This document shows, one piece after another, positions 11,457 to 58,995 of a stretch of DNA of 64,000 nt (its first letter is position 1; every line of letters starts with the position of its first letter). The DNA comes from Kiritimatiellia bacterium (GTDB lineage Bacteria; Verrucomicrobiota; Kiritimatiellia; RFP12; UBA1067). The position numbers and the translations under genes were made by a program. A model generated the notes under the pieces. It was given only the letters and a program-made list of their open reading frames with translations. It was not told the DNA's origin and searched no databases. The stretch lies in NCBI GenBank assembly GCA_017542055.1, contig JAFXXW010000023.1:22839-86838 (forward strand), given 5' to 3'.

Positions 11457-14723
<3,267 letters not shown>

Positions 14724-14762
14724 TCAGCCTTTCACCAGCTTAAAACAATGTTAGTATCTAAT

Positions 14763-14791
14763 ATTATATCATATTCCGGCCAAAAAAGCAA
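14763..14791 (-). promoter_or_regulatory. Sigma70-type promoter upstream of gyrB
   Basis: Minus strand reads TTGCTT, a 17-bp spacer ending GGAATATGA, then TATAAT (extended TG-10). Belongs to the conserved promoter family in this window. Confidence 0.7.
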
Positions 14792-14808
14792 GCAAAATCT
14801 GCACCAAT

Positions 14809-14840
14809 CGGTAAATCGAACAATCGGTAAATCGGTAAAT
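14809..14840. repeat. 8-bp tandem repeat array (cggtaaat x4, one degenerate)
   Basis: cggtaaat cgaacaat cggtaaat cggtaaat, immediately upstream of the gyrB -35. The same array recurs at 51097 and 51825. Confidence 0.8.
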
Positions 14841-14842
14841 GC

Positions 14843-14932
14843 CGGGGGGGTGCCCACCCCCTCCCCCTATCGCCCAATAGGGCGTCACCCCCTCGCCATA
14901 CGGGGCGACACCCCGGGGGGTGCTTACCCCCC
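14843..14932. other. Cluster of GC-rich hairpins (homopolymeric G/C runs)
   Basis: Hairpins ggggggtg/caccccc, cgccc-aata-gggcg, tcgcc-atacgg-ggcga and gggggg-tgctta-cccccc. No T-tracts. Confidence 0.5.
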
Positions 14933-14993
14933 TCGCCCATACCCCCCCTTGAGCTTTTCCGTCTCGACCTGCACCCTGATTCCGATAGCCTTT

Positions 14994-15030
14994 GTATCTG
15001 CGCTTATTATATAAGCGCGCATCCAGATAC
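14994..15030. repeat. 37-bp imperfect nested palindrome
   Basis: GTATCTG CGCTTAT TAT ATAAGCG CGCATC CAGATAC: an 8-bp inner stem plus a 7-bp outer inverted repeat. Confidence 0.7.
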
Positions 15031-15043
15031 AATCGGTCCCGAC

Positions 15044-15063
15044 GAATCCGATATATCGGATTC
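15044..15063. repeat. Perfect 20-bp palindrome GAATCCGATATATCGGATTC
   Basis: The sequence equals its own reverse complement. The half-site ATCGGATT recurs at 15154. Confidence 0.85.
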
Positions 15064-15211
15064 CATCGAACATCTAATTCAAGGCAATAAAGATTCTATA
15101 ATATTTTTCGCAACTTGCCGTCAAGGCCAAAAGTGATTCCGACAAACTCCCTTATCGGATTTACCCTCCATCGGTTTCATCTAATTCAGCCAAAACGCAA
15201 TTTGCTTTAAT
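15064..15211. other. AT-rich region with iteron-like 22-bp direct repeats (tccatcg..catctaattca x2); candidate replication origin of the adjacent helicase module
   Basis: Sits immediately 3' of the helicase gene. GC is far below the window average. Direct repeats at 15062-15084 and 15167-15191. TATAAT-like and TTATCCATT motifs are present. Confidence 0.45.
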
Positions 15212-16873
15212 TTACTGCGCTTTATCCATTATTTTGCGATACTTTTTGTTGTTCCCGACACCAGTACTGATAAGTTCCACACCATATTCGGTCAAATTAT
15301 CTTTGAAGTAATTGCGGATGGTTCGCATCTCTTCTTCAGTCGGTTTTTTGCCGTCAATCTTGATATTGCTCTTGATGTAATGATCCAACTCGCCGGCGTT
15401 CGGCATCAAACGCTCGACAAATTGGGATAGTTCATTCCCGTATTCGGCGAGCTTGGAGTCGTCCAAGCCGTCTTTCTTGGCGGCCTTAGGCGCGTCGGTG
15501 TAAGGCACTTCGTGCCAATAGACCATATCGCCACCTTCATCGATTGCCGGATCGTGATAGCGGATGAACTTGACCGGCAGCGAATATTTCTCTTTGACCT
15601 CCTTGGGAATATCCCATCCTAGCTGCTTATGACGCTTGCTGCCCGCAAAATAGAAGTGACCGGGCTTGTTCTTTACCGGCCACAGGAGCATCGCCGCGCG
15701 CACCCAGTTGGGTAAGTCCGCGCCACCGATGGCCGTATACTGCGCATACTCGTTGATGGGGTTGGCATTGGCGTTGTTTTTGTTGTTCTCCTGCGGCTTC
15801 ACCGTGTGATGGATGAAGATGAGCCCGCACCCCAAGTGCTTGACCTCGGCATCCTCCGCCACTCCCGGCAATGGATTGAGCACCGGCTCAATGGCGCGAT
15901 CGAAGTAATACCGGAAGAGTTCGCGCGCCTTGTCGTTGTTGGAGATGTCCTCGCCCGCCACCCCCATCAGCGGATTGACGATAAACAGATCGAACGGTTT
16001 GCCGGAGTTGCGGAACTCCTCGCGCTGCACCGCGCGAATCCAGTTGGTGAAATCTTTGCCCTGCAACCCATTCTTGAAAAAGAGCCTTATGTTCGCTCCC
16101 ATTCGCGCGAAATCTTCGTCCGTCCAATGCTCCTCCTGCCGCAATCCCCGCTTGATGTCATCGCGGAAACGCACCATCTCGCTCTTGTTGTCTTCGGTGC
16201 CGTAGATGGCGATCTTGAGCGGATGCACCGGACGCAGCCCCAACATCGCCCGTCCATTGGCCCACGCCATCGCCAGTTGCATACACAAAACCGACTTGCC
16301 TTGTCCCGCCAGCGACACCAACATGGCCGCTCCCCCCTTCTGCAACCACTGGTCGCGGATGAGCGCGTCCGGATTGTGGTCGTCATCTACCGGAGCTTCC
16401 AGTTCGTCCAGCGAAACCCCGCAGAGATCCACCGCCGTTCCAGATCCCGGCAGGTGCTCCTTGACATATTCCAGCACCGATGCGATCTGCGCCGTCTTCA
16501 CCGACAAATCCGGCGCGGAGGTTTCGATTTCTCTGAGTTTCTCCTGCCGCCAGCGATCTAGCGTGGATTCCGCAAACTCCTTGAGCAACAACTCGAGTCC
16601 ATTCATGCTCACTTCGACGTAGTTGTAGCGCTCGCGGAAATCGTCGCCCAGATGCGTTTTGAGCCGGTCCACCAGAATCGGAATATCTTCCAGATAGGAG
16701 CCATCGACATTGCGCGCCGAGATAAGCACCTCGAAAGCTTTGCGTGTCTTTTCGAAAAGGAAATAGTCCGGCTTGATTTTCCACCGCTCCACCCGCTGCA
16801 ACATTTCCTCCATGCGATTGGAATTGCCCAACATCGCCAACAACACTTTCGTTTCGCATTCTAGCTGCGTCAT
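15212..16873 (-). CDS. MGE-type replicative helicase: DnaB-N-terminal-like domain + AAA_25 (RecA-like) ATPase + C-terminal domain of unknown function
   Basis: Real start MTQLECETKVLLAMLGNSN (ATGA overlap with the upstream gene). Walker A motif SLAGQGKSVLCMQLA. A DLFIVNPL...IFIHHTVK pattern. Confidence 0.65.
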   Translation of the reverse strand: MTQLECETKVLLAMLGNSNRMEEMLQRVERWKIKPDYFLFEKTRKAFEVLISARNVDGSYLEDIPILVDRLKTHLGDDFRERYNYVEVSMNGLELLLKEFAESTLDRWRQEKLREIETSAPDLSVKTAQIASVLEYVKEHLPGSGTAVDLCGVSLDELEAPVDDDHNPDALIRDQWLQKGGAAMLVSLAGQGKSVLCMQLAMAWANGRAMLGLRPVHPLKIAIYGTEDNKSEMVRFRDDIKRGLRQEEHWTDEDFARMGANIRLFFKNGLQGKDFTNWIRAVQREEFRNSGKPFDLFIVNPLMGVAGEDISNNDKARELFRYYFDRAIEPVLNPLPGVAEDAEVKHLGCGLIFIHHTVKPQENNKNNANANPINEYAQYTAIGGADLPNWVRAAMLLWPVKNKPGHFYFAGSKRHKQLGWDIPKEVKEKYSLPVKFIRYHDPAIDEGGDMVYWHEVPYTDAPKAAKKDGLDDSKLAEYGNELSQFVERLMPNAGELDHYIKSNIKIDGKKPTEEEMRTIRNYFKDNLTEYGVELISTGVGNNKKYRKIMDKAQ

Positions 16874-17451
16874 TGTCTTGCTCCTTCCGGCTTGTCTTCC
16901 TGCTCCACTCGATTCCATCTGCCGATCAGATTGTCGAAGCGCGCCCAAAGTTCCGAATACGCGCCAATCCACTTGGACGACATAAGTTCGCCAGTTTCGC
17001 CGGTGAATACATCCAGCCAAGCCTTACGCGTCGCATCATGCGCTTCGATGAGACGCAAGACCGGCCATTCCAGTTCCGGACGCTTTTCCGCCAAGAGACG
17101 GAAAAAGCCGTCCCACGACCGTTTCATCGCATCTAGCGCATCCTGTAGCGCATCCTGTTCTGGATACTTTAGTCTGCCGGCAAGCGCCGAAAAGCGGATG
17201 AGGTTGCTCACGTCGTAGGTGGCAAGCAGTTTGTGAATCTCTTGGACGGGAAAGTTGGCCGAATCGTCCTCACGCACTTGCCCCGCCAAATAATCCAGCA
17301 TTTTCGCGGACAACTCCGGCACCTGCACCAGCTCCGCCACCACCTTTCCGCGTTCCGAAATAAATCGCCTGGCGTTCGTGCGTGCCGCTTCCACCGCCAC
17401 TTTCGCGAGCGATCCCATTTCCGCGTTCTGTCTGGTTTCTTTTTCGAGCAT
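16870..17451 (-). CDS. Hypothetical protein (middle gene of the ATPase-helicase operon)
   Basis: 193 aa measured from MLEKET (an alternative start at 17472 is possible). No recognisable motif. Translationally coupled to the helicase gene. Confidence 0.5.
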   Translation of the reverse strand: MLEKETRQNAEMGSLAKVAVEAARTNARRFISERGKVVAELVQVPELSAKMLDYLAGQVREDDSANFPVQEIHKLLATYDVSNLIRFSALAGRLKYPEQDALQDALDAMKRSWDGFFRLLAEKRPELEWPVLRLIEAHDATRKAWLDVFTGETGELMSSKWIGAYSELWARFDNLIGRWNRVEQEDKPEGARQ

Positions 17452-17455
17452 ATCG

Positions 17456-18643
17456 TTATCGAAATAGATCAAGTGGATTCAGCGCCAGAAAATCTCCAAC
17501 CGGCATGCCTTCCGGCCCTACCAGCAAAACTCCATGCGGCTTGAATCGCTTGCGGAATTCCGCCATTCCCGAAGTAAACGTTTCTCGATTGGTCTTCACT
17601 TCGATCGCCACCAATTTCCCCTGTTTTTTCAGCACGAAATCAACTTCCAATTCGCCATCTCGCCAATACATCGCTTCGTAGTTGTCGACAAATGCCCTGG
17701 ACATCAAATGGGCCCCTACCGCCGATTCCACGCAGCGACCCCATTCTACCGGGTTGGACATGATATCTTTGGGCGGCACTCCAAGATAATGGCTCCTAAG
17801 CGAATTGTCGTGAACCTGGAATTTGGGCGAACTGGCCCGTTGGCGCGCCTGGTCGACCGTGCACTTGGGCAAGGCCGAAAGCATTCCGGCCGCCGATAGC
17901 AAAGCAAGGTACCCCGCGAGCGTGGTGGTATTGCCCGCATCGACGAGCGATCCCATCATCTTGGTGTAAGACAGTTCCTTGCCGGAATATTGCGCCCCCA
18001 ACTCGAATGCTTGCCTAAGTAGCGCCGGCTTGGCCACATTCGATCCCATCAGCACATCTTTCTGGATGGTGGCCTCGATTATCGAAGTGCCGATATATTC
18101 CGACCATCGTTCATAATCTTTCGCCAAGGTGGCAGCACCGGGGTAACCGCCGAAATACATATACTCCACTTCGTCAAATCCGAATGCCGCCTGCATTTCC
18201 GGGAAACTCCAATGCGCCACTCGCAACTCTTCGAATCTCCCCTGCATGGACTCGGACAGTCCTCGCTCCAGCATTACCCTTGAAGACCCCAACAATACCA
18301 CTTTAATGTTGACATCGGCGAAAGTATCCGCATCCCACTCTTTCTTGACCGCTTCGCTCCAATTGCGGATCTTCTGGATTTCGTCGATCGCCAGCACGAA
18401 TTCCCGATCGCCGCCCACTCGCATCCTGGTGCGAGCCAATTCCCAGGTATCGCCGATCCATCCCAGATTTTCGCTGGGAACTGCATCGGCCGAAACATAC
18501 AAGTACGGAACCTCAAGTTTGCTCAAAACCTGCTTGACAATGGTCGTCTTGCCCACTTGCCTGGGGCCCACCAATACTTGGATGAACCTGCGCGACTCTT
18601 TCAATCGCGCCAACAGTTTTCCGCATGCCTCACGTTCGTACAT
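17456..18643 (-). CDS. AAA+ ATPase (AAA_14-like) fused to a DUF4143 domain carrying a PD-(D/E)xK-like nuclease motif
   Basis: Walker A motif GPRQVGKTT. C-terminal WRDGELEVDFVLKKQGKLVAIEVK, i.e. a D..EVD...K / E-x-K arrangement. Confidence 0.75.
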   Translation of the reverse strand: MYEREACGKLLARLKESRRFIQVLVGPRQVGKTTIVKQVLSKLEVPYLYVSADAVPSENLGWIGDTWELARTRMRVGGDREFVLAIDEIQKIRNWSEAVKKEWDADTFADVNIKVVLLGSSRVMLERGLSESMQGRFEELRVAHWSFPEMQAAFGFDEVEYMYFGGYPGAATLAKDYERWSEYIGTSIIEATIQKDVLMGSNVAKPALLRQAFELGAQYSGKELSYTKMMGSLVDAGNTTTLAGYLALLSAAGMLSALPKCTVDQARQRASSPKFQVHDNSLRSHYLGVPPKDIMSNPVEWGRCVESAVGAHLMSRAFVDNYEAMYWRDGELEVDFVLKKQGKLVAIEVKTNRETFTSGMAEFRKRFKPHGVLLVGPEGMPVGDFLALNPLDLFR

Positions 18644-18653
18644 GTCGCTTGCC

Positions 18654-18707
18654 TTTTACTCAATACCTTGCAGGATTTTACTCAATGACTGGTAATTTTT
18701 TACTCAA
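18654..18707. repeat. Three direct repeats TTTTACTCAA(T/C) spaced 21-22 bp, in the leader between the -10 element and the start codon
   Basis: Repeat copies at 18654, 18676 and 18697. The spacing corresponds to two helical turns. They overlap the predicted TSS region. Confidence 0.7.
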
Positions 18708-18715
18708 CAGATAGT

Positions 18716-18745
18716 ATTATATCATATTTTTCGCCCAAATGTCAA
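18716..18745 (-). promoter_or_regulatory. Consensus sigma70 promoter (TTGACA-18-TATAAT) for the ATPase/helicase operon
   Basis: Minus strand reads TTGACATTTGGGCGAAAAATATGATATAAT. Confidence 0.7.
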
Positions 18746-18837
18746 TAGAGAAATACAAAATGTTTCTTCCCGCCAGCCCATGCGCCACCCGGCAGATAAC
18801 GATGCGCTGTCGTTTTGATCCCGATGAACACCGCGCC

Positions 18838-18880
18838 GCATCCCGATCAAATTATCACCGCATCCCGATCAAACTGCCCT
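18838..18880. repeat. Two 16-bp direct repeats CCGCATCCCGATCAAA separated by 6 bp, plus a related half-site
   Basis: Seen directly in the sequence. Located about 95-140 bp upstream of the -35 of the 18716 promoter. Confidence 0.7.
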
Positions 18881-18913
18881 TGAGGGCGACAGAAGCGATA
18901 AACTTCGCTTCGC

Positions 18914-19912
18914 TTACTTGGCACCCAGTATTTCCGCTTTTTTCCTAGCATATTCTTCGTCGGTCAAAAGTCCTTTCTCGTGTAAGCTGTCCAATCGTTT
19001 GATTCGCGCTTCAACTTCTGGACCAGGCGTTTTCTTGGTTGCCACTTCACCCTTGCGCTTAATCTTTGGCTTGGTCGCTTTGGCTGCAGGTGCTGGCTTG
19101 GCGACTGGCACTGGCTTGTCGGACAGTTCAACCTTTACCGCAGGCGGCGGAGCTTGCTCTATCTTAGGCTCCGGTTTGGCGACTGGCGGATCGATTCGTG
19201 CCTTGTCGTTTCCACCGAACTTGAAGTTTACGAGCGGAAATTTCCATCCGTTGGCATTCCGGTTCCAAAGACCGATCTGCACCGACCAGTCCGACCCGGA
19301 AGGATCGTGCTCTTTGATTTCATTGTAGAGACCTGCAATCTGCAACCCGCTACCGTACTTTGCCTGATTGCTGAGGCCCGCCACTTGAATTCCGCCGAAA
19401 TCCTCGCTACCGTTAAACAAACTTCCGACTTGAATACCGTTGAGTTCCTTCGCCCGGTTCCACATGAGACCCACCTGAATGCCGTTCATGTCCAGCACCT
19501 CCGAACCCCACCAGCCAATGCCTAGCCCATAGACAGACCGCTGCGCAAAGCACGGATACTCCCAGCCTTCGACAGAATTGGGTTTTCGGGGACCGTAGGC
19601 GAACGGAACAGGATGGAAATCCTGAATCATAATGCCGCATATGTTCCAGTGATAGGCTCCAACTTCGCCAAACGAATAGGAAAAAGGCGACCAAGTGTCG
19701 GACGGAGCTTTTCGCCAAGCCTCCATACGCCGCTCCATACGCTGCTCCTGACGTTTGAGATTTAGCTCCTGAAACTCTTGTCGCTCCTCGGCAGTAAGGA
19801 AAAGCGTCCCTTTTCTCCGCACCACATCCTCGATTGGCTCCTTTTCCCCTGATTTAGGCGTATGGCACGCCACTATCGGCAGACACAGCAAAAGACCAAG
19901 CAATTTTTTCAT
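18914..19912 (-). CDS. Lipoprotein with GIQVG-type internal repeats and a C-terminal SHOCT domain
   Basis: Lipobox IVAC. Repeats NGIQVGLMW / NGIQVGSLF / GGIQVAGLS / GLQIAGLY. A Pro/Lys-rich linker. C-terminal LHEKGLLTDEEYARKKAEIL. Confidence 0.7.
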   Translation of the reverse strand: MKKLLGLLLCLPIVACHTPKSGEKEPIEDVVRRKGTLFLTAEERQEFQELNLKRQEQRMERRMEAWRKAPSDTWSPFSYSFGEVGAYHWNICGIMIQDFHPVPFAYGPRKPNSVEGWEYPCFAQRSVYGLGIGWWGSEVLDMNGIQVGLMWNRAKELNGIQVGSLFNGSEDFGGIQVAGLSNQAKYGSGLQIAGLYNEIKEHDPSGSDWSVQIGLWNRNANGWKFPLVNFKFGGNDKARIDPPVAKPEPKIEQAPPPAVKVELSDKPVPVAKPAPAAKATKPKIKRKGEVATKKTPGPEVEARIKRLDSLHEKGLLTDEEYARKKAEILGAK

Positions 19913-19913
19913 T

Positions 19914-20453
19914 TCAAAGCTCCTTGATGATTGCGGATTTCTTCTGTTCGTATTCTTCCTTGTTCAAAAGACCTTCCTCGTATGCGAGCTTGAGTTCTTG
20001 CAAATTTTGTCTCATCGGGTCGTTCGCCTCCATCTCCTCTGCGAGATATCCATACTCCTGCACCAGTTTCAGGTTGTTGGCGCGATTGACATCCATTATC
20101 GCTCCAGCCATGCCGAATGGCATTGTCACCGAATATATGTACGGGAACCATGACACCGACAATAAAAGCACCCCGCTGCCATTAAGCTCCGCTCTGTCGT
20201 AATCGTGGTTTTCGATGGCCGCATCGCCCATTTTGTTGGCGATAAACATTTGCCCCGCACCCGGCAAAATACTCCAGAAAATCGCTGGCGTCATTTTGAC
20301 GGCCGGTTTGTATCCTGGCGGCGGATTGCCTGCCCAACTTACCCCCTGTTCGTGCAGTCGATCCAATTGCGCCCGCTCTTTTTCGTACACGCGCACGGAA
20401 TTACACCCGGCCATGCCGGCCAGCATCGCCACCATCAATATGCACTTTTTCAT
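19914..20453 (-). CDS. Lipoprotein with a C-terminal SHOCT domain
   Basis: Lipobox LAGMAGC. C-terminal LKLAYEEGLLNKEEYEQKKSAII. Confidence 0.7.
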   Translation of the reverse strand: MKKCILMVAMLAGMAGCNSVRVYEKERAQLDRLHEQGVSWAGNPPPGYKPAVKMTPAIFWSILPGAGQMFIANKMGDAAIENHDYDRAELNGSGVLLLSVSWFPYIYSVTMPFGMAGAIMDVNRANNLKLVQEYGYLAEEMEANDPMRQNLQELKLAYEEGLLNKEEYEQKKSAIIKEL

Positions 20454-20763
20454 AGCATCCTTTCGTTTTCTGTTTTACCGCGTGCGATCCACAAAAAGAA
20501 AACCTCCCTTTGTATCTCTAGAGAGGCTGTGAGAATTGCCCAGATGGAAATACAAAGAGAGGAAGTGCGTTTGCACTTTCCCTGCCAAGTTTCGTCCATC
20601 TTGAAACTTCTCACATTTCTCTAGACGATCGCTTTGCAGCGTTGCAAATTGTCTGTCACTCCGCGCGTTGGCGCGGCGACGTTTGGCGGGGCGTTGCCCG
20701 CCTATACCGTTTTACCTTCTGCCGTTTCCTTTCATTCGGTTCAACGATGGTTTGAAATCTTGC

Positions 20764-21108
20764 TCATGGTTTCGGCAGTTCTGACTGTATGGCGGACAAC
20801 TGCTTTCTCATCTTCGGCAATACGCCGCGAACCGTTTCCCACAATGCCGCATAATCAACCCGCATGTATTCGTGGGCTATCATATTGCGAAGACCCACCA
20901 TCTTGTGCCATTGCACTTCCGGATGGTCGGCCTTCATCGCTCCAGACACCATGTGCGCCGCCTCGCCGATAATCATTATATAACGCTCGGCTGCGGCAAG
21001 CTTATCCTTGTTCTCAAGAAAATCTTCTTTCCGGATGCCGTCGGTCGATTCAAGCGCATCATCGATAGCGCCAAGAATATGCAGGATTCGATCGTAGTCG
21101 CGCATCAT
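20764..21108 (-). CDS. hepT: HepT-like (DUF86) toxin of a HepT/MNT toxin-antitoxin pair
   Basis: RNxxxHxY motif LRNMIAHEY. ATGA overlap with the upstream MNT gene. Confidence 0.8.
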   Translation of the reverse strand: MMRDYDRILHILGAIDDALESTDGIRKEDFLENKDKLAAAERYIMIIGEAAHMVSGAMKADHPEVQWHKMVGLRNMIAHEYMRVDYAALWETVRGVLPKMRKQLSAIQSELPKP

Positions 21109-21407
21109 ACGCTCACCATGTCCCTTCTTACTTCTTTGGCAAACCAAGGACTGCGCTCGTTGTCGATGCACCCATACGAGACAACATCCACTTCACGCCC
21201 CAGAACTCTCTCCATATCGTCTTTAAGGTCGATTGCGTCGAACAGGTTATACTTTGGCGCATACTCCACGAGAAAATCCACATCGCTGTCAGGGCGCTCT
21301 TCCTTGCGGGCGCAGGAGCCGAAGACCCAAAGCTTTTCGGCTTTGTGTTTCCGCGCGATAGCGTAGATTTCGTCCCGCTTCGCCCTGATCTCATCGAGCA
21401 TGCACAT
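21105..21407 (-). CDS. mntA: Nucleotidyltransferase (MNT) antitoxin
   Basis: GSCARKEERPDSDVDFLV nucleotidyltransferase motif. 100 aa. Confidence 0.8.
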   Translation of the reverse strand: MCMLDEIRAKRDEIYAIARKHKAEKLWVFGSCARKEERPDSDVDFLVEYAPKYNLFDAIDLKDDMERVLGREVDVVSYGCIDNERSPWFAKEVRRDMVSV

Positions 21408-21430
21408 GGATTTCCCCGTTAGATGCTAAT

Positions 21431-21459
21431 ATTATACCATATTCCCACCCGAAAAGCAA
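21431..21459 (-). promoter_or_regulatory. Promoter P1 of the MNT-HepT operon
   Basis: Minus strand reads TTGCTT, a 17-bp spacer, then TGGTATAAT. Confidence 0.65.
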
Positions 21460-21614
21460 GCAGAATCTGCGAAAACTCCCCAACTCCAAAACTCCCCCAA
21501 GCGAAAGCAACTCCCCACCCGTCAAGCGGAAAGCGGGGAAAGTGTGAGACGGGAGGTATGGTCAGTAGGCGGCGAGCTTGAGTTCGTCCGTCATGCCCTT
21601 GAAGAAATCCGAGT

Positions 21615-51923: not shown

Positions 51924-54900
51924 TTAGTTGTTAGGCGTGGCACTGACCTTGACGCGATAGAACACCGCAGTAGGCGTGCCATTCACCGCCGGCTTCACGG
52001 GGTCGACAGATGCGCTGGTCGCCAACTTGCGAGTGCCCTCGGTCTTACCTTCAGTGAAGCCCAGGTTGGTGGCCGCCTCGATGGAGTAGTAGAGGCCAGG
52101 CTTGGCAGTCGTGATCGTGACTTCAGTGGCATCAGCATCAAGCGCATCCGCCAGGCCTTCAGTCAGTTCATCGGATTCCGAAGCCGGGAACACAACCTCT
52201 TCATTGAGGTCATTGACCGGATCGACCTTCACTTCATACTTACCGTATGTCGCAGACTGCGTCACCGTGTAGTTGAAGTAGGTCTTGTAAGTTTCGGCCG
52301 TTACGCCAGTAGCGGCAGCGACCACAGCTTCCGGAATCTTCACCGAAGCTGCCGCGATAGCTGCTTCCTCGATCTGCGCCTGAGTCTTGCCCGCAGGGTC
52401 GACCGCCACTTCCTGCGTGGAAGTCGAATCGGTCGGATCGATGCCGGCAGACGCCAGCGTGTAGTAGCCAACCTCTTCGGCTTCCACCCACTTGTAGCCA
52501 TTAGGAATTTCCGAAGTCCAGGTAGCGGAAACCGCAACCGTAATACTGACTTTGCTCATGTCATTGTTGTCATCAACAACAGCAACCGCCTTTGTGGCGG
52601 AGAGCGAAGCTCCGGTCTCGATCCGAACATCGATCGTACGATTGGCATCATACTGGGCAACCGCAATCGCCGCGCCCTTGATGGTGGCACCATTGCCAGT
52701 AGGATTGTAGGAATAGGTGGCTACCGTGCCCGTAATGGAGGCGTTCATGGCAACGGACAAACTACCGTCACGGATTTCGATGCCGGACTCGCCTTTGACG
52801 ATGGCAGTACTGCCAACCGTTACATTAGCATGGCCCTGGACCGCGATACCGCTGTGAACATTTTCTCCACCAGTTGCCTCGGACGCATCAACCGTGCCGT
52901 TCACGACAATGTTGATCTCGTTCTCCTGATTCCTCAGGTTGCCGAGCACGAAGAGCATGCCCTTGACGGTGCCATTGACGGTCACATCAATCTTATTCTT
53001 CGTTGCATTGTTGGAGCCGAACACATTGAGACCATAGCAAGTGCCCTCAAGCGTGACATTCTGACCGATTGTGAGCGTACGCTTGCTGGTCAAATCGCCA
53101 GTGCCACGAATCTCAATCGGAGCCCAAGCAACATCAGTGCATGTAATCTTGCCCGTGCCAGTAACAGTCAAGCTACCACCAGCCAATGCAATTCCGTGCG
53201 TGGTAGTGATGTTGCAGTTGTTGAGATCAAGCGTAATGGCCTTATTCTCGGTCGTAGTAGCATAACGTCCCGAGCCCGCGAAGGCCGGCTCTGCACCCGC
53301 ATTCACGAAGAGACGCTCAGTCAGAGCCACATTGGACACCAACGTCACTGTCTGCCCGTCGGTTGCCGCAGCAAGCGCCTCAGCGAGGGTGGGATACAGC
53401 GTGGTGCCGATTTTGGCCTGAGCCATCGCGAAGGTAACATTGACGACCGAATCACCAGTCACAGCGGCAGTGTAGACATTGCCCACCGGAGCCGGTAGAT
53501 CAACCGGATCGGCTGCGCCCACCTTGATGGTGGCCGAGCTGACGAGGCGGTCACCATAGGGGGTCACCGTGAACGAGAGATCCGCGCCATCCTTGACGTA
53601 GAAGTAGGCTCCTGACGGACCGCCCATTTCAGCCGCGACAGCTTCCGGAACCTGACGGACCAGATCACCAATCGTTACGACGACATTACCGTCACCCGAC
53701 AGATAATCCATCTTAACCGTGCGGCGCTCGCCATAGCCATACTTGACGCGACGGTTGGGCGTCACACCGCTTATGGTCTCCACAATCCAGGTAGTGTCAC
53801 CCAAGAAGAAGGACATCTCATCGCCAATGACATAGCCGCCATCGACCGTGATGTCGATTCCCTGTCCGAACGAGACGGTCTCGCCCACATCGATCGTCAC
53901 CGCCTTATCAAGCACCAGCGCATCAGGCACCGCCTGAAGGAGCTTGACCGTCTGGCCAGCCTCGGCCGCCTCGAGGGCCTCGGAGAAGGTCTCGTACTTC
54001 ACGCCGCCGACCTCTGCGACCCAAGTACCGGCCTGAACGACCCAGTAGCCTTCCTGGAGCTTGGCAATACGGCCAGTGGCGAGGAAGTTCGTGCAGAGGC
54101 CGGAGTCGTCACCCTCTTCAGGGTTGACCTGCCAGAAGGAGCCGCCAGTAATGGTGATGAGCTGCTGAGCTACGTTTGCCTGGTTGACCGCCATGCCCGT
54201 CCAGCCAGTCTTGTACTGGTATTCAACAGCGGTGTTGTTCCTGTAGGTACCGCTATTGATGGTAACAGCAGCACCAGTGAACGGATAGACGCAAGCACCA
54301 GCCTGGGAATTGACGGTGACTGTGAGGTCTTCGAGCGTGACATTCGAGCCGGTTCGCGCCGTGATGGCGTAAACACCAGTAGCAACAATTGCGGTATCGT
54401 CCTGCGTGCAGTCGATGGTGCCGTTCTTGATGGTGACCGTGCCGCTCTTGACGTCGAACACGCTGCCGTTGCCGGAGGTGCCGGTACGGGTGATCTTGTG
54501 TCCGTTCAGGTTAATCGTGACCGGCGACATACCGGGACTCGGTTCCACGCGCTCCGTCAGCGTGATATCTTTGAGGACAACCACTTCCGCGTTATACGCA
54601 GTGGCCACAGCTACTGCCCCGGCCAGCGAATCGTAGAGGGTATAATCCACCCGGGCAACCGCTTCCTTGACCTCCATACCTTCCGGTCGAGTAACCGTGT
54701 CGGTATCGGCAGTAAGGGAAATCACCTTCTGAGAAGCGCCATTGATCACATAATCACCATCTGCCGTATAGGTGATGGTTACATTCTCTCCTATCCTCGC
54801 TTTATAGGTGTTGGTATCGGCATCAACCACTTCAGCATCCCCACCCTGCACCGAGATGGTCGTATTGTCCGGAACCTCGACAGTGAAGGTCTTAAACGCC

Positions 54901-57900
54901 AGTTTGAACGGAATGGTAATGGACAGATCGCCGGTCACCGCAGGAATGGTCGCTACAGCAACCGTTTCGTCCTCTTCCGGCTCTTCCGGTTCGATTTCTT
55001 CGGTGATATCTGCATCACCCATGACAACGGAGAGATCATCACTGTCCCCATCGATTTCGTAGTCCTCATCAGGCGTGATTGTGATTGTCACCTCAACACC
55101 GTGCTTGACCGTGTAAGGCGAAGCCGTACCCTTGATGTCGCTTGCGGAAATAGCAACCGAACCATGCTCAGTTGCAGCAACCGTAACCGTATGCGAAGCA
55201 GCATAGCCAATCGACACGACATTGCCCGCAGTGGCCGCCCAGGTGTCGGTGCCGAGGGTATAGGTGGTGCCAGCCGCAAGGGAAATCATACCGGTCGTCA
55301 TCGTCACCGTGCCCACGCTAGTAACGCCAGAGGCCGCATTAATCGTGAGATTCTTGTCGAGCGTGATGCTCTCGACATTCTTGTTGAGCGTAATCGTGTC
55401 GCCCTCGCTTGCGGCTTCAATCGCGGCAGCCAGAGTCGCATACGGCGTGTTGTCGTACGTCGCCTCCGCCAGAGTCGCCACGAGCTCGTAGTAACCGTTC
55501 TTGTAGTTCTTCGTGTAGAAGTAGTTGACATTGGTAGGAGGCACCACTGTCACCTTGTTGTCAGCCTGATCGATGAGACCGGTGAGCTGATATTCCCCTT
55601 CCGTAACGGCGAGACCCGAGCAGTCGAAGGTCAGCGAACCATCCGCGCTAAGCTGAACCGGAACACCGGTCAAGTCCAGCGCGCCATATTCCGTAGTCAC
55701 CGGAGTATTGATGACGGCAGCCGACGTCGGCTTGACAAAGTTGTCTTCCTCCTTTTCAACCGTAAGCGCCGCATTGCCGCCAATGGTCAGCGTCTCCACG
55801 TTGAGCGTTGCGTTAACGGCCAGAGCAGCGGCACCGTCGACCGTAATCGTCACGGAAGTATTGTAGCCTTCAACAACGCTTTCCGGCAGATCGTACTTGT
55901 TCTCCGTATCGCCGTCGCGATCCCACGCGTCAGTGGCTTCGAGTTCCACCTCGCCGGAAACCGTACGCGTGTAAAGACCACCCTGCGGGACGTAAGGATA
56001 GGCATCAACGATTGCTGCCGCCTGAGCATCCGAAATGGCGTAGTCGAACACCCGGATTACGTTTACAACGCCAGTCTCGGATTCATTGTCGGCAACACCC
56101 TTCCAGATGCCTGCACTGCGAACTCCATTACCGAAGTCCGCACCAACCTGCAAACCGGCCTGGGCAGTCGAACCAAGCGTAAACCCTTCACCGGCATCAA
56201 AGTTGCCACGCTTGATACCGTCAACCCAAACCGTGAATTCCGTTCCGCTCTTGACGATTACGTATGCATGGCGAGCAGTCGCCGCGTTCGGCACCGACAC
56301 CTTAACACCATGTGCATCGTCAACCGTACCGCCAGTATTCTTGGCGATCAAAACCTCATCGGCTTTCTCGGTAGTGGCAATCATGAGGCCGGTGCTGGTG
56401 CTGTGATACGAGCCACCCATGTGGACAAATATCGTCTTGGCTGTCGGCGACATCTGTCCCACCACAACCGCAGTAAAGTTATCGAGCGACGAGAACACGT
56501 CATTGGCATCATTGATGTAGGGCGAGCAACGCAGATAAAGACCGGTCGTTTCATCCCAAGCGTCATTATTGAAAGTCGCCGCGTGGTCGAAATACAGTCG
56601 CGCGCCTTCCTTTGCCTTGTAAGTGAAGGTGCCGGGGTTTTGACCATATCCAGACTTGCCGACATCGTCGCGATTGTTGGCGAAGGTGATATCGAACATT
56701 GTTGCCGCGCCGCCAATCTTCACTTCACCCGTGCCTCGAGAAGCGCTGCCGTTCTCCACCTCCAGAGTCGAGGTCGTTCCGTCGACGCGATTGAGCTTTA
56801 CGTACGAAACTCCTTCCAGATTGGAAACGGCAAACCTATCGTTTCCATATTCCGCTGACGTTTCTTTAATCACAACCGTCGAACCGGTAGTGAACTTAAA
56901 CTCTGCAGGCAACGTGCGGGTGGCACTGATATCGTACACCACATTGGCCCCCAGCGAAATGTCGCCCGTCACCTCGGTGAAATCAAGTTTCTCCACCAGC
57001 ACCTGCGTAAGTTCCGCCTCGCTCGTAAACGCCAGCGTGAAGGAACCGGAGCAAACAAACTTGACGTAATCGTACGTCTCCAGCAACGCAGCCAAATCAA
57101 CCGTGCTGGTTCCGCCGTCTGCAACTTCGATTGTCTTGAACGCCGGCTCAGCCTTGATGATCTGAACTGCCGCAAGACCGGCTCTGGCACCAGGCATGGC
57201 ACGGGTAGTGATCTTGAGCGTTCCTTCTTCACCTCGCGGCAGGATGGGGGAAACCAGATAGTTGCCGTTTTCGGTCAAAGTCGCATTATTGGCGGAACCC
57301 CACTTTTCGGTTCCCCAATACTCCACATCATTAAGCGAGACGTACCCAAACTGTCTGCCGTCGGTATCGTTCGAGAAATAAAGGACCACGCGATAGTAGT
57401 CGAACTCGGACGGAATACCGGTTATAGTGGCAATCGGCGTATCAGTCCCGTTGTTCCGATCGTCAATATAACCATGCAACAAACTCTTAGTCGCCTTGCC
57501 GCCACAGTACCAAGAACCTCTCGTGTCCTCCACCTTGACGCTTGTTCCGGCGGAAACCACCTTGTATCCGGCAGTGGAAACCTTGCTGACGGTCGAAAGC
57601 GGCGAATTGAACGTGCTACCGCCAACCGATGTCATCGTGCTCCAATACGTTCCCGGCACCGCATAGTCGCTCGCGCCAACCTTGCCGGAGGTGGAAATGA
57701 CGGTAGTGCCGGAAGCGAAGTTGATGTTGATGGAGGGATTCACATTACCGGTAAATCCGGCAATCGGCGTATTAGCATTTGCAATCGTAGCAATCTCTTC
57801 AGCCGTAAGCGCACCCTTGAAGATCGCAAAGTCGTCGATATAGGTCGTTCCAATGCTCTGCCCGCGAAGCGACGCATCAGCTGCAGAGCCGGCACGTCCC

Positions 57901-58931
57901 GGGCCCATTGCCGCCTGCTTCAGCACACCGGAAAAGCCGGAGGCGGTCTTGACGCTAGTTCCATTCTGATAAACCGTCAGGCTGCCATCGGTTCCGAATA
58001 CCAGCGCATAGTGCGCCCACTCGCCGGCAGTGTAGGCAAGTCCTGCAAACGGAGCATCGCCAGTGCCTCTATACATTGCAAACGAATCATTGGACATATG
58101 TTCCAAACGATAGTTCTCGCTACCGATGCGCAGCGCAATGAAGGAAGCCCAATCCTGAATATCGGATCCGATGTTGGCCCAGAACGAAACCGTGAAGCCT
58201 TCGGAAGTTCCGACGCCAAGGCCGCTCGTGTTGTCTGCCAGACCCAACGTGCCGCTATTGAGCTTGGCGGACTTAGTGCCAAACTTGACCTCGGTTCCAT
58301 CATAATTGCGATAACCGCTTTTCCAAGCTGTCGGAACTACGGTACCAATGCCGCCATCGGTCGCCAGCGCCACGCCGCCATCACCACAGTTGTCGCAAGA
58401 GATATAGTACAGTAGCTCGCTATGGACCAGCTTTAGACCCGAGACGCCATAACCATTCGTCGAATCGGAAGTGGCAGGAGCAATGGAAGCCTCTCCGTTG
58501 TAGGTGCCATTCTCACCTGACTCCTGGAAGCGATAACCTATGCCATTGGAAGCGGCGATATAACGGGCATTGGTGGCTACCGCCTTGATGTTATCGCCAT
58601 CCTGCGTAAGTTCCACGATAACGCACTTGATGTAGCTGCCATCCTTGGTTTGCAATTCGTAGCGCACCACGTCTTCGGACGAAGAGTTGGTGAACGTGTC
58701 GCGGTTGCACACGGCCGCAGGACCGGGATTGTCGATATAGCCGCCATCCATCGTTGCCGCGAGGAAGTACTTGGTGCCGATTTCCGAAAGCTGCACGCCC
58801 TCGAAAACGGTCGTCGCCGTAGTCGGCACGTACGCATCATATACGAGCGACGTTGCCCATGCACTTGTTCCTAGTATTGCCGCGCATGCGAGGGCGACAA
58901 AACGCATAACCCTTCCTGACGTATGTTTCAC
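51924..58931 (-). CDS. Giant (2335 aa) secreted repetitive surface protein with two LamG/concanavalin-like domains and beta-helix-like repeats
   Basis: GTG start with an AAGGAGG SD. Sec signal MKHTSGRVMRFVALACAAILGTSAWA. LamG-like segments FTVSFWANIG...LTVYQNG and IFVHMGG...FTVWVDG. Thr/Val/Gly-rich repeats. C-terminal FYRVKVSATPNN. Confidence 0.7.
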   Translation of the reverse strand: MKHTSGRVMRFVALACAAILGTSAWATSLVYDAYVPTTATTVFEGVQLSEIGTKYFLAATMDGGYIDNPGPAAVCNRDTFTNSSSEDVVRYELQTKDGSYIKCVIVELTQDGDNIKAVATNARYIAASNGIGYRFQESGENGTYNGEASIAPATSDSTNGYGVSGLKLVHSELLYYISCDNCGDGGVALATDGGIGTVVPTAWKSGYRNYDGTEVKFGTKSAKLNSGTLGLADNTSGLGVGTSEGFTVSFWANIGSDIQDWASFIALRIGSENYRLEHMSNDSFAMYRGTGDAPFAGLAYTAGEWAHYALVFGTDGSLTVYQNGTSVKTASGFSGVLKQAAMGPGRAGSAADASLRGQSIGTTYIDDFAIFKGALTAEEIATIANANTPIAGFTGNVNPSININFASGTTVISTSGKVGASDYAVPGTYWSTMTSVGGSTFNSPLSTVSKVSTAGYKVVSAGTSVKVEDTRGSWYCGGKATKSLLHGYIDDRNNGTDTPIATITGIPSEFDYYRVVLYFSNDTDGRQFGYVSLNDVEYWGTEKWGSANNATLTENGNYLVSPILPRGEEGTLKITTRAMPGARAGLAAVQIIKAEPAFKTIEVADGGTSTVDLAALLETYDYVKFVCSGSFTLAFTSEAELTQVLVEKLDFTEVTGDISLGANVVYDISATRTLPAEFKFTTGSTVVIKETSAEYGNDRFAVSNLEGVSYVKLNRVDGTTSTLEVENGSASRGTGEVKIGGAATMFDITFANNRDDVGKSGYGQNPGTFTYKAKEGARLYFDHAATFNNDAWDETTGLYLRCSPYINDANDVFSSLDNFTAVVVGQMSPTAKTIFVHMGGSYHSTSTGLMIATTEKADEVLIAKNTGGTVDDAHGVKVSVPNAATARHAYVIVKSGTEFTVWVDGIKRGNFDAGEGFTLGSTAQAGLQVGADFGNGVRSAGIWKGVADNESETGVVNVIRVFDYAISDAQAAAIVDAYPYVPQGGLYTRTVSGEVELEATDAWDRDGDTENKYDLPESVVEGYNTSVTITVDGAAALAVNATLNVETLTIGGNAALTVEKEEDNFVKPTSAAVINTPVTTEYGALDLTGVPVQLSADGSLTFDCSGLAVTEGEYQLTGLIDQADNKVTVVPPTNVNYFYTKNYKNGYYELVATLAEATYDNTPYATLAAAIEAASEGDTITLNKNVESITLDKNLTINAASGVTSVGTVTMTTGMISLAAGTTYTLGTDTWAATAGNVVSIGYAASHTVTVAATEHGSVAISASDIKGTASPYTVKHGVEVTITITPDEDYEIDGDSDDLSVVMGDADITEEIEPEEPEEDETVAVATIPAVTGDLSITIPFKLAFKTFTVEVPDNTTISVQGGDAEVVDADTNTYKARIGENVTITYTADGDYVINGASQKVISLTADTDTVTRPEGMEVKEAVARVDYTLYDSLAGAVAVATAYNAEVVVLKDITLTERVEPSPGMSPVTINLNGHKITRTGTSGNGSVFDVKSGTVTIKNGTIDCTQDDTAIVATGVYAITARTGSNVTLEDLTVTVNSQAGACVYPFTGAAVTINSGTYRNNTAVEYQYKTGWTGMAVNQANVAQQLITITGGSFWQVNPEEGDDSGLCTNFLATGRIAKLQEGYWVVQAGTWVAEVGGVKYETFSEALEAAEAGQTVKLLQAVPDALVLDKAVTIDVGETVSFGQGIDITVDGGYVIGDEMSFFLGDTTWIVETISGVTPNRRVKYGYGERRTVKMDYLSGDGNVVVTIGDLVRQVPEAVAAEMGGPSGAYFYVKDGADLSFTVTPYGDRLVSSATIKVGAADPVDLPAPVGNVYTAAVTGDSVVNVTFAMAQAKIGTTLYPTLAEALAAATDGQTVTLVSNVALTERLFVNAGAEPAFAGSGRYATTTENKAITLDLNNCNITTTHGIALAGGSLTVTGTGKITCTDVAWAPIEIRGTGDLTSKRTLTIGQNVTLEGTCYGLNVFGSNNATKNKIDVTVNGTVKGMLFVLGNLRNQENEINIVVNGTVDASEATGGENVHSGIAVQGHANVTVGSTAIVKGESGIEIRDGSLSVAMNASITGTVATYSYNPTGNGATIKGAAIAVAQYDANRTIDVRIETGASLSATKAVAVVDDNNDMSKVSITVAVSATWTSEIPNGYKWVEAEEVGYYTLASAGIDPTDSTSTQEVAVDPAGKTQAQIEEAAIAAASVKIPEAVVAAATGVTAETYKTYFNYTVTQSATYGKYEVKVDPVNDLNEEVVFPASESDELTEGLADALDADATEVTITTAKPGLYYSIEAATNLGFTEGKTEGTRKLATSASVDPVKPAVNGTPTAVFYRVKVSATPNN

Positions 58932-58966: not shown

Positions 58967-58995
58967 ATTATACCACCTTTTGGCCGCCCTGTCAA
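58967..58995 (-). promoter_or_regulatory. Perfect-consensus promoter TTGACA-17-TATAAT for the giant gene
   Basis: Minus strand reads TTGACAGGGCGGCCAAAAGGTGGTATAAT. Confidence 0.7.

Follow-up and report, generated by a model that had tools for sequence, protein, structure and literature searches.

The 64-kb stretch of Kiritimatiellia DNA analyzed here, called the window, carries on its minus strand a gene of the PDC-S01 family (positions 17456..18643, an ATG-started open reading frame (ORF) of 395 residues), the product of which combines an AAA+ ATPase, a predicted winged helix, and a PD-(D/E)xK nuclease-like core. The leader of this gene contains an array of direct repeats at strictly 22-bp phasing that is conserved among homologues and apparently undescribed. 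There is little doubt that the array is a conserved, gene-specific cis-regulatory element. That the PDC-S01 protein represses its own gene by binding the array at the DNA level is, on balance, somewhat likely. The PDC-S01 protein itself is typical of a known, abundant family and is not new; the array is the new part of the finding.

The promoter of the PDC-S01 gene is a sigma-70-type element, TTGACA-18-TG-n-TATAAT (18716..18745, minus strand), that matches the consensus at 12 of 12 hexamer positions, as the original prediction had stated, and has a TG one base before the -10 hexamer. Only two such 12/12 sites exist on both strands of the window, this one (18745..18716) and one at 58995, both on the minus strand. 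The second (58967-58995), TTGACA-17-TATAAT with a TG, lies 64 nt ahead of the start of a 2335-aa ORF (51924-58931). Contigs of the same species have no single-nucleotide polymorphism (SNP) in either hexamer of the PDC-S01 promoter. Downstream of the promoter, and on the same strand, the word TTGAGTAAAA is found three times. The first copy, F1 (18698-18707), begins 9 nt past the -10 hexamer, at about +2/+3 of the predicted transcription start site (TSS); F2 (18676-18685) follows 22 bp past F1; and F3 (18654-18663) follows 22 bp past F2 and ends 10 nt short of the ATG. These three copies are the only ones in the window, where shuffled sequences give an expectation of 0.03. Three leader repeats at 21–22 bp had been predicted, and three exact copies are present, at spacings of exactly 22 and 22 bp. 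The 11-mer repeat proposed with them fits two copies; the promoter-proximal copy reads GTTGAGTAAAA, and only the 10-mer TTGAGTAAAA is common to all three. The words F1–F3 are perfect and the spacers between them differ, with same-species SNPs falling beside the words and none inside them. The -64/-42/-20 register of the words is also found in distant relatives (L012, L056, and L084). A window-wide scan for phased repeats in three copies (identity at 9 or more of 10 positions, periods of 12–40) returned only the leader array and a second array farther upstream; when five locally shuffled versions were scanned, none contained such a repeat. Chance does not account for the promoter or for either repeat set, all of which are real. 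As a separate observation, TGAGTAA contains TGA and TAA in two frames, and a 22-nt period equals 1 modulo 3; two or three TGAGTAA copies shut all three frames just before the start codon, which may be a by-product. Readings of the words as sigma-dependent pause sites, as a start-stop mini-ORF, or as three-frame stop insulators were considered but set aside.

Homologous loci were gathered from genomes (80 loci) and metagenomes (80 loci) at 52–63% protein identity, nearly all from Bacteroidota with a few Kiritimatiellae-like, and the three closest relatives (66–69% identity) were added. In nearly every homologue, the coding strand carries two or three copies of TGAGTAA or TGCGTAA just ahead of the ATG. 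By the strict pattern TG[AC]GTAA-N15-TG[AC]GTAA, a pair is located within 200 nt upstream in 73 of the 80 genome loci, the other seven having degenerate copies, and in 124 of the 143 distinct leaders of all sets, from Bacteroidota and Kiritimatiellae. Adjacent words are spaced by 22 nt in 154 of 156 cases and never by 21 or 23 nt. Of the genome loci, 62 carry two words and 15 carry three; the last word begins at -18 from the ATG in 42. The extended consensus of the word is c-A-y-TGMGTAA-a-w. Across 1.05 Mb of related loci, word pairs outside leaders number five, at three loci: three belong to an unusually long array (L101), and two are orphan arrays of two TG[AC]GTAA words 22 nt apart with no homologous gene behind them (L076:1550-1600 and L126:4108-4160). 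The orphan arrays may be relics of lost or moved gene copies. The words are therefore both conserved with the PDC-S01 gene and specific to it, as the sites of a self-operator should be. The operator idea of the original prediction is strongly supported by this comparison: the leader array is conserved, regularly spaced, and placed at the core promoter.

In most Bacteroidota leaders, an inverted copy of the word (TTACTCA or TTACGCA) lies between the forward words, giving a repeating unit TGMGTAA-ww-TTACKCA-N6. The inverted copies are decayed and the forward words kept in the window leader and in its closest relatives (L185 and L187). These interleaved inverted copies had been missed in the original prediction, as had the third copy of the upstream array.

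Promoter and TSS positions in all leaders are consensus predictions, and by these every array overlaps or adjoins the core promoter, in the window and throughout the relatives, as the sites of a self-operator would. In the three-word leaders with a sigma-70-type promoter (the window, L185, and L187), the first word begins 9–10 nt past the -10 hexamer. In the two-word leaders of L010, L090, L091, and L093, the first word, TGAGTAAAAT, is itself the -10 element of a TTGACx-16/17-TAAAAT promoter. The Bacteroidota box TAnnTTTG takes one of several positions: in 35 leaders its end is 4 nt ahead of the first word, 28 leaders have it within the first unit (TGAGTAAATTTGC), and in 14 an upstream inverted word forms it. 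In the literature searched, neither a conserved array in the promoter or leader nor the regulation of DUF4143 or PDC-S01 genes is described.

The array travels with the gene, and a wider regulon is not supported by the window and the 1.05 Mb of related loci; the gene product itself is therefore likely to be the binding factor. No conserved neighbor, partner, or regulator gene was found, the largest cluster of flanking genes covering 13 of about 158 loci; most of these 13 have near-identical leaders in contigs of human-gut assemblies. The genes downstream of PDC-S01 in the window are absent beside the closest relatives. The protein also co-varies with the word. Mutual information was calculated over 147 distinct proteins between each protein column and base 3 of the word, which is A or C. 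Residue 240 ranks first over the whole set (0.45, next 0.33) and also within a 72%-identity clade that holds both word classes (0.92, next 0.65). Serine at this position goes with TGCGTAA in 14 of 14 cases and valine with TGAGTAA in 45 of 45; threonine goes with the A variant in 66 cases, with mixed words in nine, and with the C variant in three. This co-variation of residue 240 with base 3 is no more than suggestive.

The domain architecture of the 395-aa protein is that of PDC-S01. A Pfam scan assigns AAA_14 (PF13173) to residues 21-150 (E 2.6e-23) and DUF4143 (PF13635) to residues 194-351 (E 2e-25, profile positions 1-159 of 160), and the PADLOC PDC-S01 model, PDLC04791, matches residues 1-393 over profile positions 1-393 of 395 (E 2.9e-169). 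An identical protein is recorded in a Kiritimatiellae metagenome-assembled genome, and the next-closest of more than 8000 scored relatives has 69% identity. By sequence, the protein has no solved structural relative past weak AAA hits. An AlphaFold model of the whole protein, built from 26 homologues, has a mean predicted local distance difference test (pLDDT) score of 89.8 and a predicted template modeling (pTM) score of 0.89, and comprises, in order, an AAA+ core with its lid, a winged helix, and the nuclease domain. The ATPase core (18194..18583, minus strand; residues 21-150) contains a Walker A motif, GPRQVGKT, and a Walker B pair, D87-E88, and residues G26, P27, R28, Q29, G31, K32, D87, and E88 are invariant in the alignment of the 26 homologues. 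The predicted winged-helix DNA-binding module (17804..18046, minus strand; residues ~200-280), assigned from the secondary structure of the model, is composed of helices 206-218, 226-232, and 239-251, followed by a β wing of strands 255-258 and 274-277. The third helix, 239-251, the putative recognition helix, opens with a GNT-x-T motif, of which residue 240 is the x (codon 17924-17926).

The nuclease-like core (17519..17752, minus strand; residues 298-375) was also modeled alone. The isolated domain (pLDDT 95.2) adopts an α-β-β-β-α-β topology, with helix 11-33, strands 36-42, 45-53, and 56-62, helix 71-80, and strand 84-88 in domain numbering. The C-terminal motif reads W327-R-D-G-E-L-E333-V-D335-F-V-L-K-K...A-I-E348-V-K350 and includes the IEVK-type D/E-x-K arrangement that the original prediction had noticed in the DUF4143 C terminus. 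E306 is placed on the first helix, the acidic residue D335 on strand 2, and the (D/E)-x-K motif, E348-x-K350, on strand 3, which is the PD-(D/E)xK arrangement. E306, D335, E348, and K350 do not vary among the 26 homologues or in a 16-sequence alignment of the domain. Foldseek matches to the domain are almost all PD-(D/E)xK proteins, namely R2 endonuclease, XisH, Hjc, McrC, Can2, VRR-NUC, and Bax1, with probabilities up to 0.99 and modest E-values. The models thus confirm the predicted fusion of an AAA+ ATPase to a PD-(D/E)xK tail and add a predicted winged helix between them, and the structure modeling and fold search that had been proposed as a check recovered a nuclease core. The nearest folds to the whole model are DNA-bound Orc1/Cdc6 and origin recognition complex (ORC) subunits and RuvB. 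As modeled, the protein has the means to bind DNA, with an AAA+ module and a winged helix whose nearest structural neighbors are DNA-bound initiators.

DUF4143/COG1373 was already included in a 2012 catalogue of PD-(D/E)xK families (PMC3424549). PDC-S01, an ATPase fused to a PD-(D/E)xK domain, is an unvalidated defense candidate whose candidacy rests on genomic embedding only; with ~29,500 bacterial and 10,000 archaeal instances in one survey, it is reported to be the fourth commonest prokaryotic defense candidate (PMC12988326). In rumen genomes, PDC-S01 is the most frequent single locus (PMC13356809). The defense-nuclease candidacy put forward for this gene agrees with its full-length PDC-S01 match, but it is not new, and the family as a whole is still an unvalidated candidate.

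For self-repression by the PDC-S01 protein, we infer the identity of the array binder, repression upon binding, and the mode of relief as follows. The winged helix would contact the TTGAGTAAAA words, whose exact 22-bp spacing would set several protomers side by side along one face of the double helix. The bound protomers would cover about +2 to +55, directly behind a promoter of consensus strength, and would block RNA polymerase, such that a potentially toxic nuclease would be held at a low level. Repression may be lifted upon titration of the protein by other DNA or upon a change in its nucleotide or oligomer state. Several points weigh against this proposal. The inverted copies in most Bacteroidota leaders are able to form strong RNA hairpins (z -7.9 for the L051 leader); G.U mismatches exceed A.C mismatches, 70 versus 18, in pairs of forward and inverted words; and, relative to the ATG, the last word usually occupies -18 to -12, a position in which the RNA could conceivably affect translation. 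The combination of an inverted pair at 9 bp, center to center, with direct phasing at 22 bp comes without a worked-out structural model, and repression, as opposed to activation, is assumed from position alone. In addition, the proteins with TGCGTAA words fall essentially into one clade (77% mean identity within the class) and represent few independent events, and although residue 240 differs in 14 of 15 greedily chosen close A/C pairs, which are not independent of each other, so do five other variable columns. The claim for residue 240 is kept modest because of this close-pair check.

The first three of these points would suit an RNA switch, in which UGAGUAA and UUACUCA words form mutually exclusive hairpins that mask or free the sequence immediately preceding the start codon and thereby control translation or mRNA stability. 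Such a switch appears improbable as the general explanation. Between forward words, the inverted copies of most Bacteroidota leaders retain Watson-Crick pairing at 80% of positions, the L051 leader folds at -32.8 kcal/mol, forward and inverted words partially co-vary (A-T 103, C-G 15), and the common -18 position of the last word, along with the G.U excess, suits an RNA element. The window leader, however, is less structured than its shuffles (z +0.99) and is not a structured RNA leader, yet has three perfect forward words; L185 and L187 likewise keep forward words beside decayed inverted copies. The first word is the -10 element in L010 and L090-L093, and the TAnnTTTG box lies inside the first unit in the 28 Bacteroidota leaders noted above; because a promoter element is inside the first word or unit, this word, and often its partner too, is predicted to be untranscribed. 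Non-pairing A.G or C.U oppositions are found at the stem center in 18% of units, and the 22-nt spacing is fixed even though loop lengths could drift. The G.U excess is largely an A-to-G change at one position of the inverted word, which creates the TTTG box, together with C-to-T changes in AT-rich genomes; because of these confounding effects, the G.U versus A.C count is used as evidence in neither direction. Rfam has no match in this region of the window or in 15 related loci. A DNA operator is rated well above an RNA switch, although an RNA role retains some probability in Bacteroidota.

A separate host transcription factor that reads the words and controls a regulon, as the original prediction expected, is less probable again. 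The position of the array over the TSS and leader and its phased spacing would suit any repressor, and the window covers 64 kb of a genome in which a regulator gene could be located elsewhere. The window, however, has no further copy of the word, and in the 1.05 Mb word pairs occur almost exclusively in PDC-S01 leaders, so that the expected regulon is not supported. A separate factor is unlikely because the array accompanies the gene in two phyla without a conserved neighbor; such a factor would have to be common to, or co-transferred among, Kiritimatiellae and many Bacteroidota families. Moreover, other subfamilies of these proteins have private words of their own.

These other subfamilies are distant AAA_14 + DUF4143 paralogues that were found in the homologue loci by chance. 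Five were scanned with Pfam, which confirmed both domains in four, among them the representatives of the two subfamilies described here; the fifth, L095, has AAA_14 only. Genes of a 446-aa subfamily (L059, L025, and L174-L183) are preceded by direct repeats, two to five in number and with a period of exactly 33 nt, in which a variable part is followed by GAAAAAGTG. Genes of a 417-aa subfamily (L189-L207) have a locus-specific element of ~11-20 nt in copies 68-87 nt apart, which, as read by eye from the sequences, flank a sigma-70-like promoter in several loci; 417-aa paralogues in Bacteroidota loci (L131 and L034) have TGGCAATATTGCCA palindromes instead. No loci were found for the L087-type subfamily in viral contigs. 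At the level of these sequences, private promoter repeats look like a general trait of the protein superfamily, as self-recognition predicts.

A broader generalization, which we regard as tentative and less likely to hold than to fail, is that all AAA_14 + DUF4143 proteins are sequence-specific, DNA-reading AAA+ nucleases, each with a cognate phased array around its own promoter (22-nt, 33-nt, and ~75-nt layouts in the three subfamilies). The array would serve as both the self-repression site and an assembly platform for the ATPase, and specificity would be re-set by a few winged-helix residues, such as V/T/S versus A/C at word base 3 for residue 240. If so, the fourth commonest defense candidate would be a family with a readable DNA recognition code, and PDC-S01 proteins could be Orc-like selfish DNA-binding modules rather than agents of phage defense. 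The array offers a candidate cognate DNA for the winged helix of each subfamily and a candidate specificity residue, and it opens both the regulation of PDC-S01 and its DNA specificity to direct experiment.

The second array of the window, three copies of TT(G/C)ATCGGGAT (18818..18872, minus strand), is positioned 73-127 nt upstream of the -35 hexamer. Its copies, TTGATCGGGAT at 18862-18872, TTGATCGGGAT at 18840-18850, and TTCATCGGGAT at 18818-18828, are exactly 22 bp apart. The two 16-bp direct repeats predicted upstream of the promoter are real, with TTTGATCGGGATGCGG occurring twice, but they are incomplete as a description and form part of this three-copy array. The second array, as far from random as the leader array, is present only in contigs of the same species and was not found in the closest relatives or in any other fetched locus. 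Its RNA does not fold significantly. The array may represent a further operator, an iteron-like site for a protein of the operon, or a relic leader.

The promoter probably drives a three-gene operon because a 4-nt gap and then a 4-nt overlap separate the genes. The gene for a 193-aa protein (16870..17451, minus strand; gene calls on L001) starts 4 nt past the PDC-S01 stop codon, and its product has no Pfam, NCBIfam, PHROG, or PADLOC match. It is overlapped by 4 nt by the gene for a 553-aa AAA_25 protein of the RepA/DnaB-like helicase type (15212..16873, minus strand; Pfam), which has weak PHROG primase/helicase matches. The operon proteins considered as binders of an iteron-like second array are these two, the 193-aa protein and the AAA_25 protein. 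A word-indexed search of 5.8 billion proteins returned only the AAA_25 protein itself, and an exhaustive search returned 1511 relatives, the best match at 36% identity and none above ~41%. A tblastn search against phage and plasmid collections gave no hit. The AAA_25 gene was not found beside PDC-S01 homologues and is not a conserved partner, and with only distant relatives and no phage or plasmid match, it offers no help as a key to the arrays.

The presence of a helicase-type gene and a second phased array flanking the promoter brings to mind an iteron-like origin or the ends of an element, with the PDC-S01 protein as an Orc1/Cdc6-like initiator or an array-cutting nuclease of a selfish or replicative unit, in which the AAA_25 protein and the second array could take part. 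Direct repeats of 22 bp are the classic geometry of iteron plasmids, and the repeats here are spaced by about two helical turns, 22 bp in both window arrays and in nearly all word pairs of the relatives; the best whole-protein folds are Orc1/Cdc6 and ORC on origin DNA, the gene has spread across phyla into unrelated contexts, and orphan arrays without the gene exist (L076 and L126). This possibility is nonetheless very unlikely, as the arrays always lie between promoter and start codon and not beside an AT-rich unwinding region, homologues reside in chromosomal contigs (a 4.4-Mb chromosome-scale record for L031 and contigs of hundreds of kb) in unrelated contexts rather than on an autonomous replicon, the subfamily of the window is nearly absent from viral contigs (four distant hits), neither the AAA_25 gene nor the second array is conserved alongside PDC-S01, and no sharp boundary of an element is seen in same-species contigs.

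The PDC-S01 gene resides in a ~7-kb stretch of lower GC content (14750-21600, ~0.50 versus 0.60) between gyrB and a GT8 glycosyltransferase gene. This stretch also contains two SHOCT-domain lipoproteins (18914-20453) and, ~2 kb upstream of the PDC-S01 gene, an MNT/HepT toxin-antitoxin pair (20764-21407), in which MNT matches PADLOC PDC-S09 and HepT has no PADLOC hit. The only other 395-aa ORF of the window, considered as a second gene copy, is DnaJ. The ends of same-species contigs were considered as a mobile-element boundary and rejected: the break at 14884 falls in G/C-homopolymer hairpins, the upstream breaks are scattered, and L006 merely diverges. Position 14884 is the break point of three same-species contigs. 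The region upstream of gyrB (14715-15211) is rich in repeats: CAATCGGTAAATCG is present in three copies at 14805-14842, hairpin repeats of G/C homopolymers span 14842-14945, and a hairpin with 26-nt arms (14982-15036) and a perfect 20-bp palindrome, GAATCCGATATATCGGATTC (15044-15063), follow. An extended -10 element, AATATGATATAAT, is common to the gyrB and PDC-S01 promoters. Among the close homologues, L185 and L188 are each beside an ATPase_2 gene (478 and 472 aa), and in L187 the neighboring 396-aa ORF gives AAA-family Pfam hits that are no better than weak or faint. That L185, L187, and L188 adjoin large P-loop ATPase genes suggests defense-island-like neighborhoods.

At the protein level, no difference is apparent between the protein described here and PADLOC PDC-S01, with which it shares the same two Pfam domains and the same ATPase + PD-(D/E)xK architecture (PMC12988326). 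McrBC performs NTPase-driven cleavage by a PD-(D/E)xK nuclease, and McrC (6hz4, probability 0.99) is among the fold matches of the PDC-S01 C terminus; McrB (the GTPase) and McrC (the nuclease) are separate subunits, however, and the DNA reader differs from that of PDC-S01. To our knowledge, no self-operator has been described for McrBC.

Similar to Orc1/Cdc6, the PDC-S01 protein has an AAA+ module followed by a winged-helix reader, and its best structural matches are 2qby, 2v1u, and human ORC, with no detectable sequence homology to Orc1/Cdc6 or DnaA initiators. Orc1/Cdc6 (through origin recognition box (ORB) repeats) and DnaA (through DnaA boxes) have repeated cognate sites beside their own genes, and DnaA represses its own promoter. 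Orc1/Cdc6 and DnaA are without the C-terminal nuclease core, and unlike their sites, the PDC-S01 arrays are located between promoter and ATG, in ordinary chromosomal contexts with no unwinding element. Iteron Rep proteins (pPS10 RepA, F RepE, and P1 RepA) read ~22-bp direct repeats through winged helices, and an inverted version of the iteron word over the rep promoter confers self-repression. PDC-S01 leaders also mix 22-bp direct words and inverted copies at the promoter. The Rep proteins, however, do not belong to the AAA+ ATPases and lack a nuclease domain, and PDC-S01 loci give no evidence of a replicon.

The controller C-proteins of restriction-modification (R-M) systems, which bind C-boxes, and repressors of the BrxR/CapW type bind repeated sites over the promoters of the toxic nuclease or defense genes that they keep in check, and this control provides low steady expression with the capacity for a burst. 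C-proteins and BrxR/CapW are separate small proteins, whereas the PDC-S01 reader would be part of the effector and its sites are phased direct repeats. If the PDC-S01 protein binds its own array, regulator and effector would be one polypeptide, unlike the separate repressors of bacteriophage exclusion (BREX), cyclic oligonucleotide-based antiphage signaling system (CBASS), and R-M loci, and this arrangement would bear on whether PDC-S01 genes are defense systems.

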